Of a stretch of 64,000 bases of DNA, positions 12,574 to 39,122 are shown in pieces (the stretch's first letter is position 1; each line of letters starts with the position of its first letter). The notes below the pieces were generated by a model, which saw only the letters and a program-made list of their open reading frames with translations, did not search any database and had not been told where the DNA came from. The position numbers were made by a program, and so were the translations under genes. Source of the stretch: Staphylococcus phage vB_SepM_BE08. The stretch lies in the sequence record MT596505.1; one strand, given 5' to 3'.

Positions 12574-12680
12574 AGGCTAACTTATGTTAGTCTTTTTTTA
12601 TATATCTATTATACCATAAACATCTTGAATATTAAAATTAAACTATCTCAATTTCCAACACTACTAAATATTAATTATTT

Positions 12681-12862
12681 ATTGTTAATATATTTATTAT
12701 TAATAATTAGTATTAGTATATATAAATATATATATATTAGAGTAATCCTTATTTTCCAAATATACAAATTACCTAAATATTCAGAATTCTTTTTCCTTAT
12801 ATATAAATATTGTTAATATATTTGTTATTAATAATTAGTATTAGTATATATAAATAATAGTT
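12681..12862. repeat. two copies of a direct repeat of about 50 bp (ATTGTTAATATATTT[A/G]TTATTAATAATTAGTATTAGTATATATAAATA) in an extremely AT-rich intergenic region
   Basis: Copy 1 is at about 12681-12730 and copy 2 at about 12812-12862. Confidence 0.7.
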
Positions 12863-12962
12863 ATTAGAACTGGTCTTATTTGCCAAATAGTTAAAAAAAC
12901 CTCTAAAACACTTGATATTAAAGGATTTTAATCAAAAATTTAAAAAAGTTTATAAAAAGTGT

Positions 12963-12992
12963 TGACATTTATCAAAAATAAGATTATAATAA
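12963..12992 (+). promoter_or_regulatory. sigma-70-like promoter (TTGACA, 17 nt, TATAAT)
   Basis: TTGACATTTATCAAAAATAAGATTATAAT, located upstream of 13032. Confidence 0.6.
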
Positions 12993-13031
12993 ACTTAACA
13001 ATAAAAAATTAAGAAAAGGATTTGATTAAGT

Positions 13032-13253
13032 ATGAGAAAACAAGTAATGGTATATTCAAAACTAAATTGTAAAGAATGTGGGAACCACTTTATGGTTCCT
13101 AGAAAAAGAGCAAAAAGAAGAGAAGAAGGTCATATCAAAGACTTATATTGTGTAAAATGTAAAAAAACAACAAAACATATTGAGGATAACAGAAGTGAAA
13201 CAGAAAAATTCTGGGATGAATTCCATTCAAATAGAAAATATCAAAAAAATTAA
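13032..13253 (+). CDS. small zinc-ribbon protein (two CxxC pairs)
   Basis: 73-aa ORF containing CKEC...CVKC. An RBS (AAAAGGA) is present. Confidence 0.5.
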   Translation: MRKQVMVYSKLNCKECGNHFMVPRKRAKRREEGHIKDLYCVKCKKTTKHIEDNRSETEKFWDEFHSNRKYQKN

Positions 13254-13283
13254 TAAAAAATTTAAAAAAGTTTTAAAATAAAC

Positions 13284-13312
13284 TTGACACAGGGTTATTT
13301 TTATGTTATGAT
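13284..13312 (+). promoter_or_regulatory. consensus sigma-70-like promoter (TTGACA, 17 nt, TATGAT)
   Basis: TTGACACAGGGTTATTTTTATGTTATGAT, with no ORF downstream. Confidence 0.6.
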
Positions 13313-13319
13313 ATATGTA

Positions 13320-14135
13320 TCAAATAAAACAAATCCCTTACACAACTGTTTTTTCATTACGTTGTTTTCCAGTTCAAACAATAACAGCGTTTGCCTATAA
13401 CTAATGATTAGACTATAAACAAATCAAGAGGAAATTAGTCTATTCCTCTAATATAATTTTAATACAACTAAACATCTGAACATAGTGACTGAATAAGTGA
13501 GTGATGTCACTAAGGTGTAAGAATGTCTTAGGAAGCCTACTAAAGTGTGAGAACCTTTAGAGGTATCCTCAGAGGGATATTTATTCCGAAAGGATTGCTT
13601 AGCACTTGGATATAAGGATTATACGGTAGAGAGACTATCAGTGATGAATCACTAGTCAAGGTCTTAGCGGAATCTTGACTAGTTACGCTACTAAAATCAT
13701 TTACGTGGTTGGAGCCTAGAAATAGGTTTGATAATGATTGTCTTTCGTACAAGTAGCACAAACCCACGATAAAGCTAAAGAAAACAAAAAATATATGTTA
13801 TTTTAATTCTTCACATCGTGTGAAAGTTGGTAAGTAACTGTCCTTACCCCTATACTGTGGAAACACTCATAAAAGTGGACTATGGCTAGCTACCATATAG
13901 AACTTTCTATGACTAGGTTACCTAATAATAATTCTTATATTTTAGTTCCCTGTGAAAAGGGCTATGTTTGGATATTTAGTTGTATTATACAACTAACTTC
14001 TCTTTCATTTTATTATTCTTATCAATGGTTTTTGACTCCTTTACCATTGATAGAGAGAAACCCCTTATAAGAACATATTCATTTGTACAAACAAACACCT
14101 CCTTATAAAAAACAAAAAACTTATAAGGGGTTTTT
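13320..14135 (+). ncRNA. candidate structured non-coding transcript of about 800 nt, or a long leader, running from the promoter to the terminator
   Basis: No credible ORF on either strand. GC content is locally higher than the flanks. Strong hairpins are present (ACTAGTCAAG...CTTGACTAGT, GAGGAA..TTCCTC). It is bounded by a consensus promoter and a hairpin plus T-run terminator. Confidence 0.3.
14062..14135 (+). terminator. rho-independent terminator with a long stem (CCCCTTATAAG...CTTATAAGGGG followed by TTTTT)
   Basis: 11-bp inverted repeat followed by a T-run. Confidence 0.55.
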
Positions 14136-14240
14136 ACATACACATAACCCTAATAACCTGAATATAATTTGCTTGATATTTATATTCAAAAAAAAATAAG
14201 GTAAGTACTTTTTAAAGGTTTTTGTCTCACCTATACATAA

Positions 14241-14606
14241 ATGAAAAAAGGAATTGTTATTGTGGCAAAGAAAAAAACATTAGCTCAAAAAACATATGAA
14301 GATACAGTAAAAGCTAGAAGATGGTTTGCAGGTACTCGAAATGAATTTAATACAGCAAGAGCAAAAAAGAAAAATACTGAAGCTTTTTTAAAACAATCAA
14401 AAGAAGATATTAAAACAGCTAGTGAAAAAGGTAGATTTAGTTGTATATTGTATTATAAAGTATTTAAGTTTAAAGAACCTGTAGAAGGGTATAATAAACA
14501 AGAAATATTATCAGCACTTAAAGAGTTGGATAAAGAAGGATTTAAAACAACATATGAGGATACTCAAGATGGTGTATTAGTGAGTGCTAGATGGGATAAC
14601 GAATAA
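14241..14606 (+). CDS. hypothetical basic protein
   Basis: 121-aa ORF rich in K and R. Confidence 0.5.
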   Translation: MKKGIVIVAKKKTLAQKTYEDTVKARRWFAGTRNEFNTARAKKKNTEAFLKQSKEDIKTASEKGRFSCILYYKVFKFKEPVEGYNKQEILSALKELDKEGFKTTYEDTQDGVLVSARWDNE

Positions 14607-14918: not shown

Positions 14919-15482
14919 ATGTCTAATAAAGATATGAAAAAACCTACTGTTGTAGGTGGTGTAAACTTATCCACACGTGTACGCAGTAAGACTTTTTGGG
15001 TATCACTTGTAGGTATACTAGTTGGTGTAGTTACTCAAGTAGGTACACTTTTTGGTCTTGATTTAGAAGACCAAGTAGGACAATACTCTGAATTAGCTAC
15101 AGGTATTATTACAGCTTTAGGTATTTTAGGTGTTTTACAAGACCCTAATACTAAAGGAATTAAAGATAGTGGTATTGCACAAACATACACTTCTCGTAGA
15201 GATAGTAAAGACCCTGAACAAGCAATAGATTGGCAAAATAATACAGAATTTGATTTAGGTGTAAAGAAACCTCAAGAGTTTGATACTTCTGAATCTTTCT
15301 CTGATGATAGTGATGAAGAAGAAGTAGATTTAGAAGAAGAAGAAGTAGCTAAAGATGATTCTGTACAAGAAGACACAAATAAACCCCTTGGAGCTGGAAA
15401 AGGAGAGTCTGTAGACTCTATGAAAAACACACCTCTAAATGTAGGTAGTCAATCAGCTAAATCAAAAGGCGGTGAAAAATAA
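14919..15482 (+). CDS. holin
   Basis: 187-aa ORF with two TM helices (FWVSLVGILVGVVTQVGTLFGL, ATGIITALGILGVL) and a charged C-terminal tail. It sits immediately upstream of the endolysin. Confidence 0.75.
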   Translation: MSNKDMKKPTVVGGVNLSTRVRSKTFWVSLVGILVGVVTQVGTLFGLDLEDQVGQYSELATGIITALGILGVLQDPNTKGIKDSGIAQTYTSRRDSKDPEQAIDWQNNTEFDLGVKKPQEFDTSESFSDDSDEEEVDLEEEEVAKDDSVQEDTNKPLGAGKGESVDSMKNTPLNVGSQSAKSKGGEK

Positions 15483-15484
15483 TA

Positions 15485-16939
15485 ATGAAAACTAAAAAAC
15501 AAGCTTTAAAATGGATTTTAAATACTATAGGTCAAGGTATAGATTGGGATAAAATGTATGGGTTTCAATGTATGGATTTAGTTGTTGCTTATTTGTATTA
15601 CGTTACTGACGGAAAAATAGCAATGTGGGGAAATGCTATTGATGCTCCTAAAAATAATTTTAAAGGTACTGCTAAAGTAATTAAAAATTACCCTGCTTTT
15701 AGACCTGAAGAAGGAGATATAGTAGTTTGGTCTTATGGTAATTTTAGTACTTACGGACATATTGCTGTAGTTATAGATGGAGACCCTTACGGTGACTTGC
15801 AATATATCACAGTAGCTGAGCAAAATTGGAATGGTTTAGGACTATACAAACAAGAAGTTACTACAAAACGTATTCATAATTACGATGGTGTATCTCATTT
15901 CATAAGACCTAAGTTCAAAAAAACAGTTAAAAAAGAAGATAACACTCTTACAAAAGAAAAAAACAACAAAAAAACAAAAGGAAAAAAATTAAAAGTATCA
16001 ACACAAAGAATAAACTACACTATGGATAAAAGAGGTTATAAACCTAAATTTGTTGTAATACACAATGATGCTGGTAGTTCTTCTGCACAACAGTATGAAC
16101 AAGGATTAAAAAATGCAGGATACAGTAGATATGCTCAAGGAGTAGCACATGCATACGCTTCTGATGGTTATGTGTGGGAAGCAATATCAGAAGATAGAAT
16201 AGCTTGGCATACAGGCGATGGAACAAACCCAGGAACAGGTAACTTTGAAGGATATGGAATTGAAGTTTGTCAATCTTTAGGAGATAGAAATACTTTCTTA
16301 AAAAATGAGCAAACTGTATTCCAATTTATTGCAGAAAAATTGCAAAAATGGAACTTACCTGCAAATAGAAATACCATCAGACTTCATAATGAATTTATAC
16401 AAACAGAATGTCCCCATGCTTCAGCATATTATCATGCAGGTATGAATACTAAAGTAGATGCTTATACAAAAGAAAGACAATTAAAAATAAAAGATTATTT
16501 CATAAAACAAATTAGAGCATACATGAAAGGAAGTACACCTAAATCTACAGTAGTAAAATCTAGTAAAAATAGTGGTTCTTTACCTAAGAAAAAAGGTAAA
16601 AAACAAAAATTTAAATCAAATATTGGTAAAACATTCGACTTTAATGGATTAAATACCAATACTTGGGGTACTAAATGGTATTATGAAAATAATACATTTA
16701 CATGTAATGCTCGACAAGGTATCATAACAAGAGTAGGTAGTCCGTTTACAAACGCACCTCAAGCAGGTGTTTTATTCTACGGACAAACTGTAACATATAA
16801 TCAAGTAGCTGTTAATCCAAAAGAGCCATTTGTATGGATTTCATGGATTACAAATAATGGTACTGAAGTATGGATGCCTATTGAAGTCTTAGACAGTAAT
16901 AATAAAATTATTGAGCAGTGGGGTACTTTTGGTTGGTAA
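15485..16939 (+). CDS. endolysin with CHAP peptidase, amidase_2 and SH3b cell-wall-binding domains (LysK/PlyTW-like); no intron
   Basis: An N-terminal CHAP domain carries a Cys in FQCMDLV and a downstream His (GHIAVV). The central domain is amidase-2 (VVIHNDAGSS...WHTGDG...ECPH). The C-terminus is SH3b-like. Confidence 0.9.
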   Translation: MKTKKQALKWILNTIGQGIDWDKMYGFQCMDLVVAYLYYVTDGKIAMWGNAIDAPKNNFKGTAKVIKNYPAFRPEEGDIVVWSYGNFSTYGHIAVVIDGDPYGDLQYITVAEQNWNGLGLYKQEVTTKRIHNYDGVSHFIRPKFKKTVKKEDNTLTKEKNNKKTKGKKLKVSTQRINYTMDKRGYKPKFVVIHNDAGSSSAQQYEQGLKNAGYSRYAQGVAHAYASDGYVWEAISEDRIAWHTGDGTNPGTGNFEGYGIEVCQSLGDRNTFLKNEQTVFQFIAEKLQKWNLPANRNTIRLHNEFIQTECPHASAYYHAGMNTKVDAYTKERQLKIKDYFIKQIRAYMKGSTPKSTVVKSSKNSGSLPKKKGKKQKFKSNIGKTFDFNGLNTNTWGTKWYYENNTFTCNARQGIITRVGSPFTNAPQAGVLFYGQTVTYNQVAVNPKEPFVWISWITNNGTEVWMPIEVLDSNNKIIEQWGTFGW

Positions 16940-26188: not shown

Positions 26189-26310
26189 GGTTAAATTGGA
26201 TAGAAATTGTTATATTATGGGTGTATAAATAATTTATACATTCCATAATATCTTTCCTTTTCCCTTATTACTTTTGTAGTAAGGGTTTTATTTTATATTG
26301 GAGGTATATT

Positions 26311-26727
26311 ATGGATATTAAAGAATTCTTAGAAGGACAACCTAAATCAGAGTATAAGGATAAACAGAAGTTAAAAGAAAGTATTATTAATACAAGTATT
26401 GAGATTACAAAAGTAAACCTAAATGATTTCAGAGAACTAGAAAAGTTATTTGATGATTTAAAAGAATACATCCATATTTTAGAAATTAATTATGGTAAAG
26501 AAACGAATATAGAAATTCCTAGCCACTATTCAGGAACAAAAGATGTTATATCATTCTTAGAAGAACAGTTTACAGCTGAATCTTTTGTTAGCTCTATGGT
26601 GTTTAACATTGTTAAGTATACTACAAGATTAGGTAGAAAAGATGAAGAAGCAAAAGAAATAAGTAAAATTAAAAATTACTATTTAAGATTGCATAACTTT
26701 TTCTTAACAGGTGACTCACTTGGATAG
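26311..26727 (+). CDS. hypothetical protein
   Basis: 138-aa ORF with an RBS (TGGAGG). Confidence 0.5.
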   Translation: MDIKEFLEGQPKSEYKDKQKLKESIINTSIEITKVNLNDFRELEKLFDDLKEYIHILEINYGKETNIEIPSHYSGTKDVISFLEEQFTAESFVSSMVFNIVKYTTRLGRKDEEAKEISKIKNYYLRLHNFFLTGDSLG

Positions 26728-36738: not shown

Positions 36739-36808
36739 TTCCTTTCTTTATTTGTTAAGTTAATAATAACATGTGTTGGGGTTGAGTGTCAACCCCTTTA
36801 TTTAATTT

Positions 36809-36949
36809 TTATTTTTGTAACTCTTCTAGTTCTTTTTTAGCTTTCTTAATCTCTCTTCTTGCTTCCGCTTCTTCTTTCTTAGTAAGGTCTTGGAATTCCA
36901 ATTCCATTTCTAAGTTCTCGATAATGCTTTCTAGTTCTAATTCTCTCAT
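36809..36949 (-). CDS. small coiled-coil protein (46 aa)
   Basis: MRELELESIIENLEMELEF... Promoter at about 37007. The leader and RBS are identical to those of the neighbouring gene (TTGTAACAATTCCTTTCTTTATTTGTTAAGTTAATAAT). Confidence 0.35.
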   Translation of the reverse strand: MRELELESIIENLEMELEFQDLTKKEEAEARREIKKAKKELEELQK

Positions 36950-37339
36950 TTGTAACAATTCCTTTCTTTATTTGTTAAGTTAATAATATCATAAAGGCTT
37001 GAGAGTGTCAAGCCTTTATTTAATTTTTTTATTGTGGAAATCTTCCAGTATCTTCTAGCGTTTCATTACCTTTGAACGTTGGGTAATATTCTAATTCTTC
37101 CACCCATTCGTTAAATTCTACACTATCTAATAATTGGTCTAAATTCATTTCTATCAATTCCTTTTCTGTTTGATTTGTTATCTTTATATTAACATGTAAG
37201 TTTCAGATTGTCAACACATTTTATTAATTTTTTTATTTCTTTTTTTTTGTGTTGTTCCCTGTTCCTTACAAATACTATTATATCAAATATACTATATAAG
37301 TCAATAGTTTTTTAAAAGAAAAAAGTGTAAAATTTACCT

Positions 37340-37386
37340 ATTGACAAATGGTAGTTTTTAATATATAATAGAAGTGATGACCTTTT
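37340..37386 (+). promoter_or_regulatory. plus-strand promoter (TTGACA, 17 nt, TATAAT) with a conserved downstream box GAAGTGATGAC and an upstream operator-like GTGTAAAATTTACC; it is antisense relative to the early block
   Basis: CCTATTGACAAATGGTAGTTTTTAATATATAATAGAAGTGATGACC. A near-identical unit recurs at 40166-40225. Confidence 0.45.
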
Positions 37387-37593
37387 TTAGTATAAGAATA
37401 AAATTAAATAATTTTTTTATTTAATAAAAATTAGGTTAGGTCTTTCCTGTTACCCCTCTTGGGCAACTCTGGTATCTCTACAATTATTATTATACAGTAG
37501 TAAGCAAATAAAGTCAATAGATATTTAAAAGAAATTTTACACCTTAAATTTTAATATATAAAAAATGAATATAAATTTAAACAAACAAAATAA

Positions 37594-37619
37594 CCTAGGA
37601 ATTTAATCCTAGGTTATTC
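37594..37619. terminator. bidirectional terminator palindrome AACCTAGGAATTTAATCCTAGGTT
   Basis: Perfect 10-bp arms. The same palindrome occurs at 39053-39075. Confidence 0.55.
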
Positions 37620-37629
37620 TATAACTTTT

Positions 37630-38199
37630 TTAATTATTTTCATTGAATTCTTTAAATAATTCTAATTGATTATTTTTAAAATCAGTTATATATTTATAAC
37701 CTTTTCTAACTGCTTTTAAATCTTTAAACATATAATATAAACTGTCTTGTAATTCTTCAAATTCTGCTTGCAAGTCGTCTTGCAAGTCTTCTATATCGTC
37801 ATTCAAGTTACTGTAATATTCTTCAAAGTTATCTGATAGGAATACGTCTTCAAGCTCATTTAATCCATAGCCTAGAACGTCAAATATATCTTCATTGTCT
37901 TGTACGTCAAATAATTCAAAGTCAGTCATTACGCTTTTAGGTACGATTTTGAATGATGAAGTTGTTCCTAGTTGTTCTGTTTCTAACCCATTGTCTTTTA
38001 GGTATTCTGTAAATTCATCAAATTCAAGCTCACAGAAGCTATTAAACATTCTCATATCTTCTTCAGTTTCTAAAGTGAAAGCAACATCATGAAGCTTCAC
38101 ATTTGTATAGCCTAGCTTTTCTACATGTTTTTTAATATTCATAAATTGTTTATTTAATTTTTCTGTTTCTTTTTTAATTTCATTATATAGTTTTTTCAT
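37630..38199 (-). CDS. hypothetical acidic protein (189 aa)
   Basis: Early promoter at about 38294. The conserved leader is ACAAGGTTAAGGAA...AAATAAAAAAATTATAGAATTTGAAGGGAA, followed by ATG. Confidence 0.55.
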   Translation of the reverse strand: MKKLYNEIKKETEKLNKQFMNIKKHVEKLGYTNVKLHDVAFTLETEEDMRMFNSFCELEFDEFTEYLKDNGLETEQLGTTSSFKIVPKSVMTDFELFDVQDNEDIFDVLGYGLNELEDVFLSDNFEEYYSNLNDDIEDLQDDLQAEFEELQDSLYYMFKDLKAVRKGYKYITDFKNNQLELFKEFNENN

Positions 38200-38310
38200 T
38201 TAAATCAGTTCCCTTCAAATTCTATAATTTTTTTATTTGCTTTAGGTCATTTCCTTAACCTTGTGTCTTAATAATAACATGTTGTGTTTAAGTTGTCAAT
38301 AGTTATTTTG

Positions 38311-38442
38311 AATATTTTACAATTTTATTTGCTTTCAAAAATGTAACATCTTGACGGTAGTTTTTTAATTCTTCTGCAAAATTTTCATTATTTTTCATAC
38401 CGATTAATTTTAAAGTTGTTGTAATTTTTTTCATTTAAATCA
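38311..38442 (-). CDS. small basic protein (43 aa)
   Basis: MKKITTTLKLIGMKNNENF... Its promoter (at about 38547), leader and RBS are identical to those of the previous gene. Confidence 0.35.
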
Positions 38443-39122
38443 ATTCCCTTCAAATTCTATAATTTTTTTATTTAATTTCTTTAGGTTAGAAGCGGTTGAC
38501 CGCTTCCTTAACCTTACAATTATATAATATCATAGTTTCAAGTGACTGTCAACACTTTTTAAAAAATTAATTCTTTTTCTTTTTTACTATCCATATACAT
38601 TTTTATTTCACAACATAACCAAAGTGTTATCATTTGTAACAACCCCTAATTAATAATTTTTTTATATAATTCTTGTAAGGTTTGTTATTTCTTTCCCTTA
38701 CAACTATTATATTACTACACATTAAAACCAATTGCAACCCCTAAATGCAAATTTTTTTAAGAAAAAAAATAATAAAAAAGTTGGTAAAACCCCTTTACAA
38801 ATACCGTAGAATTTGTTATTCTATATATAGAAAGAAAGCGGTGACCTGCATCCATGTCCGCTATATAAATGAAGTTGTAGGGGGAAAGACCAACCCTAAA
38901 CCTTTTTATATAAAAAAGTTATTTAATTTTATTTTTATATTAAAAAAAGATTCCCACTCTATTATAGCATTTTTAATATAATATTGTCAAGTGTTAATTT
39001 TACACCTTTATTTTTATTATATAATTTTTTTATATAAATTTAAAAAATAAAAAACCTAGGAATTTAATCCTAGGCTTAATATTATTTAATATAATTTTTT
39101 TTTATTTAATTCAGAAGCGGTA

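Follow-up and report, generated by a model that had tools for sequence, protein, structure and literature searches.

A 528-nucleotide structured RNA of a Sepunavirus phage, orthologous to Kayvirus lncRNA2, is very probably a divergent member of the ROOL family

We analyzed a 64,000-nucleotide (nt) stretch of the genome of Staphylococcus phage vB_SepM_BE08 (sequence record MT596505.1), hereafter the window, and within it the interval between a small zinc-ribbon gene and the lysis genes. Over positions 13000-14400 the sequence shares 99.6% identity with Staphylococcus phage phiIPLA-C1C, a Sepunavirus (Herelleviridae, Twortvirinae). In that genome no annotation covers the stretch from the gene for a 73-amino-acid (aa) zinc-ribbon protein (window 13032-13253) to a hypothetical gene (14241-14606); downstream of the latter open reading frame (ORF) lie a holin gene at 14919 and an endolysin gene at 15485. 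A first-pass annotation, made from the sequence alone, had described positions 13284-14135 as a promoter-to-terminator unit that may carry a large structured non-coding RNA (ncRNA) rather than a gene or tRNAs. Covariation, folding energy (z = -6.3), strand asymmetry, the lack of a conserved ORF and RNA sequencing (RNA-seq) of orthologs all bear this out, with a correction to the extent: the structured RNA is there, but its conserved part is a 528-nt core on the plus strand (13460-13987) and not all of the roughly 850 nt. This core is a stand-alone ncRNA and, on the evidence of covariation, of a match to the Rfam family RF03087 and of a profile built from ROOL sequences only, very probably a divergent member of the ROOL family. 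It is not a new kind of RNA but a divergent and hitherto unlinked branch of that family, whose Kayvirus ortholog is already known as a transcript.

Sensitive blastn searches found the region conserved in 266 phage records, nearly always unannotated; all are Twort-like phages of Staphylococcus or Mammaliicoccus, and they include phage K (38008-38806) and Twort. A search for related loci with a single protein returned only close relatives. As the first-pass annotation had noted, G+C content is higher here (0.33-0.39 over 13400-13900) than in the flanks (0.15-0.27). Both of the ORFs that it had named and discounted exist (13540-13767 on the minus strand, 75 aa; 13882-14070 on the plus strand, 62 aa), and neither is conserved across 20 orthologs. 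No ORF is conserved among these orthologs at all, because the longest stop-free stretch (35-104 codons) shifts in strand, frame, position and length from one to the next. Its failure to find tRNAs by eye is matched by ARAGORN, which detects no tRNA or transfer-messenger RNA gene in the whole 64-kb window, and by Rfam, which returns no tRNA match on either the window or the region.

Covariation across Twort-like genomes, which the first-pass annotation had proposed as a check, is extensive. The alignment comprises 20 representatives from at least six genera, and the alignment used for the structure test includes a divergent clade from IMG/VR. Of the 138 pairs that RNAalifold predicts, 77 show compensatory changes; after curation the structure comprises 21 helices with 149 pairs, including two pseudoknots that were recovered by a covariation scan. 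Across the alignment 96.9% of the cells of these pairs can pair, whereas only about 40% (36-41%) can when the 3' partners are slid by one to three columns; 88 of the 149 pairs have changed on both sides (15-26 when slid), and the covariation score is 0.456 (0.04-0.09 when slid), with none of 500 shuffles reaching any of the observed measures. As a single sequence the core has a minimum free energy of -154.3 kcal/mol (z = -6.31). The pairing is also strand-specific: G-U cells number 325 and A-C cells 28, and pairing reaches 96.9% on the plus strand against 85.9% on the opposite strand; the excess of G-U over A-C means that the structure belongs to the plus-strand transcript and not to the DNA or to the opposite strand.

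The core is 525-587 nt long in other staphylococcal phages, and it is bounded by a closing helix of 25 base pairs (bp) formed by its two ends, 13460-13485 with 13962-13987, the 3' strand of which marks the point where sequence conservation outside the genus stops. Its 25 pairs are 98.4% paired, 11 have changes on both sides, and in the Baoshanvirus-like clade (L033, L026, L025) the sequence of the helix is wholly different while the pairing is kept. Among the best-covarying helices within the core is the hairpin ACTAGTCAAG/CTTGACTAGT that had been singled out from the sequence, which we place at 13651-13663 with 13670-13683; this long hairpin (13651-13683) has a conserved loop, UCUUAGCGGAA, and 11 pairs that are 98.6% paired, nine of them changed on both sides. 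The loop takes part in the first pseudoknot (PK1, 13666-13689), in which AGCG (13666-13669) base-pairs with CGCU (13686-13689), shortly downstream of the hairpin. PK1 is 100% paired and two of its four pairs covary (GGUG/CACC in CF5, AGUG/CACU in Twort); this covariation is compatible with a contact within one chain and with a contact between chains, and does not tell them apart. The second pseudoknot (PK2, 13704-13768) pairs CGUGG (13704-13708) with CCACG (13764-13768), is likewise 100% paired with two of five pairs covarying, and crosses a long helix formed by 13629-13640 and 13735-13746. It is followed by an A-rich linker (13769-13806) that varies in length and sequence, is rich in gaps, cannot be aligned between genera and has no conserved pairing. 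Towards the 3' end lies a UAUGG/CCAUA hairpin (13881-13897), five of whose six pairs covary, with the self-complementary loop CUAGCUA. The core of this loop is AGCU (13888-13891) here, in most of the other phages and in Listeria phage A511, UGCA in Sciuriunavirus and CGCU in Twort, and we regard it as a candidate for a symmetric loop-loop contact between copies of the RNA.

When a 551-nt core sequence is scanned alone against Rfam, the ROOL model (RF03087) matches positions 13466-13978 with 65.8 bits and an E-value of 5.7e-13, and does so over its entire length (model positions 1-574 of 574). The same family is reached from the side of the phages. A loose pattern, GTTGN{30,50}AAGTAGCNNAAANCNAC, run on IMG/VR and GTDB genomes returned mostly chance loci, and these were sifted with nhmmer. 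A hidden Markov model (HMM) built from staphylococcal sequences only picks out 22 of them (E 4.5e-10 to 0.1), and Rfam calls ROOL RNAs (105-333 bits) in 14 of the 16 loci that were scanned with it, in the same places and orientation, usually within tRNA arrays. Conversely, an HMM derived from 13 certified ROOLs and no other sequences matches the window at 13688-13838 (E 4.3e-15) and also matches Twort, CF5, SEP1, A511 and K. At the level of structure, the covariance model R1, built from the central domain of staphylococcal sequences only, finds every certified ROOL that was tested over its full length (E 2.7e-11 to 2.5e-4), and the Rfam ROOL model finds the A511 RNA (L043:2565-3116) over its full length with 87.5 bits (E 2.4e-16).

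The order of the motifs is the same in the ROOL consensus and in the window: GUGA..GA with a hairpin, a GAAA-loop hairpin followed by GAUAAU/GUAUAA, GUAcAAGUAGC, UUCU..GUGAAAGUU, a hairpin with ..GCU.. in its loop, and finally a 3' GNRA-like hairpin. The closing helix corresponds to the outermost helix of the Rfam consensus, PK1 to the position at which that consensus has the loop GUGGcAa followed by UgCCAA, and the linker at 13769-13806 aligns to an unstructured A-rich stretch of the ROOL model, the part that cryo-electron microscopy of ROOL shows as a disordered linker within its cage (PMC12286853).

Several observations weigh against the assignment. The score of 65.8 bits lies below the Rfam gathering score of 99.1, which places the RNA outside the ROOL family as Rfam currently delimits it, although that boundary is a curation cut-off and not a biological property. 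An Rfam scan, which the first-pass annotation had also suggested, gives no ROOL match over the whole window at the gathering score and only noise over 1.5 kb at E <= 10; the match comes with the core-only scan. The pairing of ROOL sequences under R1 (80% of cells, against 38-48% when slid) is inflated, because the alignment concerned (A5) was fitted to the model. Two elements of the ROOL model, at about 109-135 and 210-232, have no counterpart in the window RNA, so the contacts that hold a ROOL cage together may differ or be absent, and of the three ROOL pseudoknots in the literature only two are recovered. Unlike typical ROOL loci, the 64-kb window contains no tRNA. Lastly, the RNA-seq paper on the Sepunavirus SEP1 does not mention the locus, so that abundance in Sepunavirus is taken from orthologs only.

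The Rfam gathering score and default filters miss this branch of the family, a blind spot of standard annotation. Two further loci, L054:5495-6067 and L222:284-844, are ROOLs by profile HMM (E 1.5e-62 and 7.3e-42) and are absent from Rfam scans both at the gathering score and at E <= 10, which indicates that the speed filters lose real family members. The second of these comes from a contig of a metagenome-assembled genome of an uncultured member of the Bacilli; a 6S RNA and a fragment of a group II intron lie on the same contig.

ROOL was found by comparative genomics in 2017 (Weinberg et al.), with an average length of 581 nt (PMC5737381). In Ligilactobacillus salivarius it is about as abundant as 16S rRNA, yet non-essential, and cryo-electron microscopy (cryo-EM) of the representative env-120 revealed a D4 homo-octameric, RNA-only cage about 280 Å across (Kretsch et al. 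2025) that is held together by kissing loops and A-minor contacts and has a disordered linker inside; its authors suggested that it might encapsulate tRNAs, ribosomes or other molecules (PMC12286853). The main text of that paper and those supplements that were searched make no mention of Staphylococcus or Listeria phages. The window RNA resembles ROOL in the long helix that joins its ends, in its variable A-rich linker, in what appears to be a similar overall plan with many junctions and pseudoknots, in being phage-encoded, and, through its relatives, in adjoining tRNA genes and in the very high abundance of its orthologs. The tRNAs lie 3' of the RNA in K, 184DA, PSU5, JS1, V1SC04, Golestan and CF5, and 5' of it in A511. 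It differs in length (528 nt, about 50 nt below the family average), in its setting, since it occurs in Staphylococcus and Listeria Herelleviridae that are strictly lytic and not in rumen, Lactobacillales or prophage sequences, and in having upstream of it a zinc-ribbon gene and a conserved leader module, both of which metagenomic ROOL loci lack. GOLLD (RF01998) shares with it an occurrence in phages and in tRNA islands, large size, high expression during lysis and an RNA-only cage (PMC12286853), whereas its sequence and fold are unrelated; at E <= 10, Rfam finds no GOLLD match in the window, K, Twort or A511. Group I and II introns, RNase P, 6S, GOLLD, OLE, HEARO and raiA are likewise without a match on the region (E <= 10) or the window (gathering score).

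The window RNA is the direct ortholog of Kayvirus lncRNA2, also called lnc002. Positions 38008-38806 of phage K align to the region, the flanking zinc-ribbon gene, promoter and leader are the same, and the core can be aligned from end to end, with compensatory changes; our predicted K core (38,007-38,590) encloses the lncRNA2 reported at 38,024-38,566. In vB_SauM-515A1 lncRNA2 is 525 nt long, is transcribed from an early promoter and makes up 8.4-9% of counts per million (PMC7698491). In phage K, lnc002/lnc001 was placed between gp191 and the tRNA gt004, where it has an early promoter to itself and collects the most reads (PMC9241854); another study gives it 543 nt at the coordinates above and, together with lncRNA1, 27% of reads, with no evident terminator and with downstream tRNAs that are much less abundant (PMC11598898). 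These three papers describe a discrete, very abundant and ORF-free RNA and note only a positional resemblance to GOLLD and ROOL; what they contain is expression data, with no evidence on structure or homology. A 2023 review asserts sequence similarity and gives no data for it (PMC10383478), and in the literature that we searched ROOL, GOLLD and Staphylococcus occur together only in two Kayvirus papers. The arrangement in Kayvirus differs from that in Sepunavirus in having a terminator and a second promoter between leader and core and three tRNAs downstream (in phage K about 330 nt from the homologous RNA), neither of which is present in Sepunavirus.

The family extends to Listeria. In phage A511 the Staphylococcus profile (A2) matches a 660-nt gap between a tRNA-Pro gene and the zinc-ribbon gene (E 6.7e-6), and the R1 covariance model matches at E 3.3e-17. 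Inspected by eye, the A511 RNA retains the long helix and the hairpin with the GAAA loop, as well as AAGUAGC..AAAUCUACA and the UAAGGUAGCUCCUUA hairpin, and its ends form a closing helix of roughly 20 bp; PK1 is made by a different sequence (GUAAGUA/UACUUAC) and PK2 is present as UGUAG/CUACA. It is present in all 53 P100/A511-like genomes (53/53) and coincides with region 26,236-26,727 of phage CKA15, which ONT-cappable-seq and RNA-seq place among the most transcribed of that genome, with levels that rise to the end of infection (PMC12282133). The CKA15 authors withdrew the small coding sequences (CDSs) called there because these have neither a ribosome-binding site (RBS) nor a homolog, suggested Y RNAs instead (PMC12282133), and linked the RNA to neither ROOL nor Kayvirus lncRNA2. 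The Listeria RNA is homologous to that of the window, has pseudoknots and a closing helix made from other sequences, and adjoins the same zinc-ribbon gene; it differs in being closer to the ROOL consensus (87.5 bits compared with 65.8 for the window) and in lying upstream of the zinc-ribbon gene, directly after tRNA-Pro. Around it in A511 (L043 2436-7189) we also noticed, about 1 kb away, a Ro60-like 'RNA-binding protein', gp178, with the tRNA splicing ligase RtcB nearby, and, between tRNAs upstream, two more ORF-free gaps of about 620-660 nt.

By analogy with its relatives, the window RNA would be transcribed from an early sigma-70 promoter (P1, described below) with a start at about 13319, reading through a leader of 140 nt and ending at or before the U5-tailed hairpin at 14135; both the early timing and a very high abundance are carried over from the literature on its orthologs. 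The core would then fold alone into some 20 helices and at least two pseudoknots closed by the 25-bp end-to-end helix, which may define the mature core through processing and probably shields the RNA from exonucleases. Such protection would explain why the core accumulates while the flanks and the downstream tRNAs do not, and why coverage in Kayvirus stops at the helix despite the lack of an evident terminator. Homology with ROOL env-120 suggests that about eight copies would come together as a hollow cage made of RNA only, joined by loop-loop and A-minor contacts, and the window RNA probably forms an octamer of this kind, with the variable A-rich linker (13769-13806) inside and with PK1 and the self-complementary AGCU loop as candidate contacts between chains. 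What such a cage might hold is a guess of low probability: a component of the translation or tRNA apparatus that is sequestered or sheltered during lytic growth. In its fullest form, the proposal is that Staphylococcus and Listeria Herelleviridae have a distinct, streamlined ROOL lineage as a core lytic component and not as an accessory to the tRNA islands of prophages, working as a module in which the P1 leader RNA, the cage and the zinc-ribbon protein together capture or shelter translation or tRNA machinery, and this we consider unlikely, if worth stating.

Homology with ROOL need not imply a cage. The RNA could act as a monomer or small oligomer, for instance as a plentiful sponge or decoy that engages an RNA-binding protein, a ribonuclease or a defence sensor of the host, an alternative that we find doubtful but take seriously: the two missing consensus elements and a length about 50 nt below the family average (PMC5737381) are in its favor, and high expression from an early promoter suits a stoichiometric decoy equally well (PMC7698491, PMC9241854). 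The RNA nevertheless retains a loop contact of the PK1 type and the self-complementary loop, as well as the closing helix and a variable linker, and the formation of cages by both ROOL and the unrelated GOLLD (PMC12286853) suggests that the cage is the selected property. A more specific role, very improbable in our judgment for the staphylococcal phages, is that of a Y-RNA-like scaffold whose terminal stem binds the Ro60 homolog Rsr and which acts with RtcB in RNA repair or decay. This was suggested for the transcripts of Listeria phage CKA15 (PMC12282133); in A511 the RNA lies about 1 kb from the Ro60-like gp178 and near RtcB, and the stem made by the two ends of the RNA is indeed a feature of Y RNAs. 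The 64-kb window, however, has no Rsr homolog (best tblastn E 0.19), the window RNA has some five times the size of Y RNAs, which are about 100-200 nt long and have a tRNA-like domain, and Rfam finds no YrlA or Y RNA match on an RNA that it does match with ROOL; that the sequence of the closing helix is freely replaceable also argues against a sequence-specific Ro site.

The remaining explanations would set aside a stand-alone RNA altogether. For the core we find no support for the long structured leader that the first-pass annotation had listed among its options, here as a cis-regulator of the ORF at 14241-14606, the holin at 14919 and the endolysin at 15485, and we give this very little credence. 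The common orientation with the lysis genes, the single promoter ahead of everything and a pair of mutually exclusive hairpins at 13409-13448 would fit it, but a hairpin with U5 separates the RNA from the next ORF, tRNA genes or different ORFs follow the core in other genera and unrelated genes follow it in A511, the lysis genes are late while the RNA has an early promoter (PMC9241854), and homologous ROOLs stand alone. That the region codes for small proteins is less credible still. ORFs of 29-75 codons are present and have been annotated by others, and GenBank records place three to six small CDSs over the RNA, some of them with an RBS (Quidividi_062-064, MSShimriz1, 184DA, JS1, V1SC04; loci L002, L006, L015, L019 and L020). 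None of these CDSs is conserved, however, no ORF keeps its strand, frame and position among the 20 orthologs, the substitutions in helices are compensatory, and the CKA15 authors withdrew calls of this kind (PMC12282133). Least plausible of all, to the point of being barely worth entertaining, is an element acting as DNA, such as a replication origin or a packaging or recombination site. Its appeal lies in the extremely AT-rich, untranscribed gap that the locus adjoins (12574-13031), for the counterpart of which an origin has been proposed in K (PMC9241854), but strand-specific pairing (325 G-U against 28 A-C cells), the highest transcription in related genomes and homology to a known RNA family all speak for an RNA. 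As to the gap itself, it is ORF-free, has 15-16% G+C and lies immediately upstream of the promoter of the zinc-ribbon gene; its phage K counterpart is the sole untranscribed region there, hence the proposal (PMC9241854).

Assignment to ROOL makes one family of Kayvirus lncRNA2, its Sepunavirus counterpart and the top unexplained transcript of the P100/A511-like Listeria phages, and so joins three literatures. Few known RNAs of bacteria and phages are as large and elaborate as ROOL and GOLLD, whose RNA-only cages exceed the ribosome in size (cryo-EM 2025), and the examples studied so far come from metagenomes or a Lactobacillus megaplasmid. The family is now placed in well-characterized, tractable, strictly lytic phages of medical relevance: lncRNA2 is the most abundant non-coding transcript of the Kayvirus therapeutic phages, and the A511-like phages are used in biocontrol. 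Current annotations of therapy phages omit their most expressed gene, and several GenBank records have spurious small CDSs in its place. With editable genomes, synchronous infections and time-resolved RNA-seq at hand, deletion, compensatory mutation and pull-down experiments should be straightforward, and if the reading as a three-part module were true, genetic work in K, SEP1 or A511 could settle what ROOL does, a puzzle since 2017.

Promoter P1 (13284-13312, plus strand) is as the first-pass annotation described it, with a -35 TTGACA, a 17-nt spacer and a -10 TATGAT; 11 of 12 positions agree with the consensus, the spacer adds the TG of an extended -10, and the expected start is at about 13319. 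It occupies the same place in all orthologous loci of the Twortvirinae. The leader between P1 and the core is about 140 nt long, with an invariant 5' stretch CCUUACACA, and contains a conserved module (13345-13390), present in a single copy per genome, in which helix B pairs ACGTTGTT (13359-13366) with AACAGCGT (13383-13390) while the loop CAGT (13370-13373) can pair with the upstream ACTG (13345-13348). Since MAFFT misaligned helix A, pairing in the module was checked sequence by sequence. Helix B occurs in five or more covarying versions (ACATTGTT/AACAATGT, AAAATTGTT/AACAATTTT, AGTGGTT/AACCACT, CCTTACC/GGTAAGG and CTTTTTA/TAAAAAG), whereas helix A hardly varies (the Twort clade has ACTAGG/CCTAGT), and for this reason the pairing of loop and ACTG stays a possible rather than an established H-type pseudoknot.

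In most other Twort-like genera the module is followed by a U-run or terminator and then by a second promoter, P2, 5-10 nt before the core; in phage K it lies between leader and core at L003:2677. Sepunavirus has no P2, and P1 is the only recognizable promoter upstream of the core, which must therefore be transcribed from P1. In place of P2, Sepunavirus has the mutually exclusive hairpins at 13409-13448 (plus strand), TAGACTA (13409-13415) with TAGTCTA (13436-13442) and the GAGGAA/TTCCTC hairpin of the first-pass annotation, now located at 13428-13433 and 13443-13448. The pair is specific to Sepunavirus, the alignment shows CCGACTT/AAGTCGG in place of TAGACTA/TAGTCTA in phage PG-2021_23, and the predicted fold is weak (-8.8 kcal/mol, z = -1.3); the hairpins might serve as an attenuator or read-through switch. 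In Baoshanvirus-like phages, which have an extra ORF after the zinc-ribbon gene, the module lies about 250 nt downstream of the core (L033:4737-4795; L044:4457; L046:4501; ..CUGUUUUU..UUUUCCAGUAUAAAACAAUAAC..), and it is therefore a separable, independent small RNA element. It was not found beside non-staphylococcal ROOLs.

The zinc-ribbon gene itself (13032-13253, plus strand) encodes a basic 73-aa protein that matches PHROG 1257 ('ribosome associated inhibitor A; zinc finger', E 6.5e-25), while its Pfam matches all fall below cut-off. In every Staphylococcus locus the gene immediately precedes the RNA, and in Listeria A511 it immediately follows the RNA; the protein has homologs in Listeria and Bacillus Herelleviridae. 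We treat it as a syntenic neighbor of the RNA rather than as a demonstrated partner. We considered and rejected the protein as a general partner of ROOL, as no homolog occurs beside 21 metagenomic ROOL loci within the flanking DNA examined. Within 3 kb of the zinc-ribbon gene in Bacillus phage Riley (L047) and in Staphylococcus phage PG-2021_14 (L045) there is no ROOL-like RNA.

Kayvirus phages have another abundant RNA, lncRNA1 (K 13,688-14,215), for which blastn finds neither similarity to lncRNA2 nor an ortholog in the window. Its 3' end (L034:633-769, minus strand; K NC_005880.2 ~13,632-13,768) scores 43.4 bits with the Rfam model DUF3800-I, for which the gathering score is 44.2. Roughly where a counterpart would be expected, the window has an 891-nt stretch (36739-37629) with no ORF of at least 70 aa and a fold z of -5.9. 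We rejected it as an RNA gene, given its repeated reverse-strand units of RBS and terminator that are typical of small minus-strand genes; it has no Rfam match at the gathering score.

Downstream of the core lies a genus-specific trailer (13988-14135, plus strand) of about 150 nt that is conserved only within Sepunavirus and folds at -32.6 kcal/mol (z = -5.7), with tRNA genes in its place in other genera. It consists of a hairpin (14020-14029 with 14043-14052) and the terminator-like stem followed by U5 (14131-14135). The hairpin and U-run had been recognized in the first-pass annotation, but the stem has 12 bp (14060-14071 with 14120-14131) and not 11. Its loop of 48 nt is the reason why a consensus scan does not call it, and its fold is supported at z = -5.8; an alternative 10-bp hairpin (14099-14108 with 14121-14130) with a 12-nt loop uses the same 3' arm. 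For this arm, CUUAUAAGGGG, the trailer thus offers two complementary copies upstream (14060-14071 and 14099-14108), either of which it can pair with, and both of these C-rich arms, like the loop of the preceding hairpin (ACUCCUUU, ~14034-14041), resemble anti-Shine-Dalgarno sequences.

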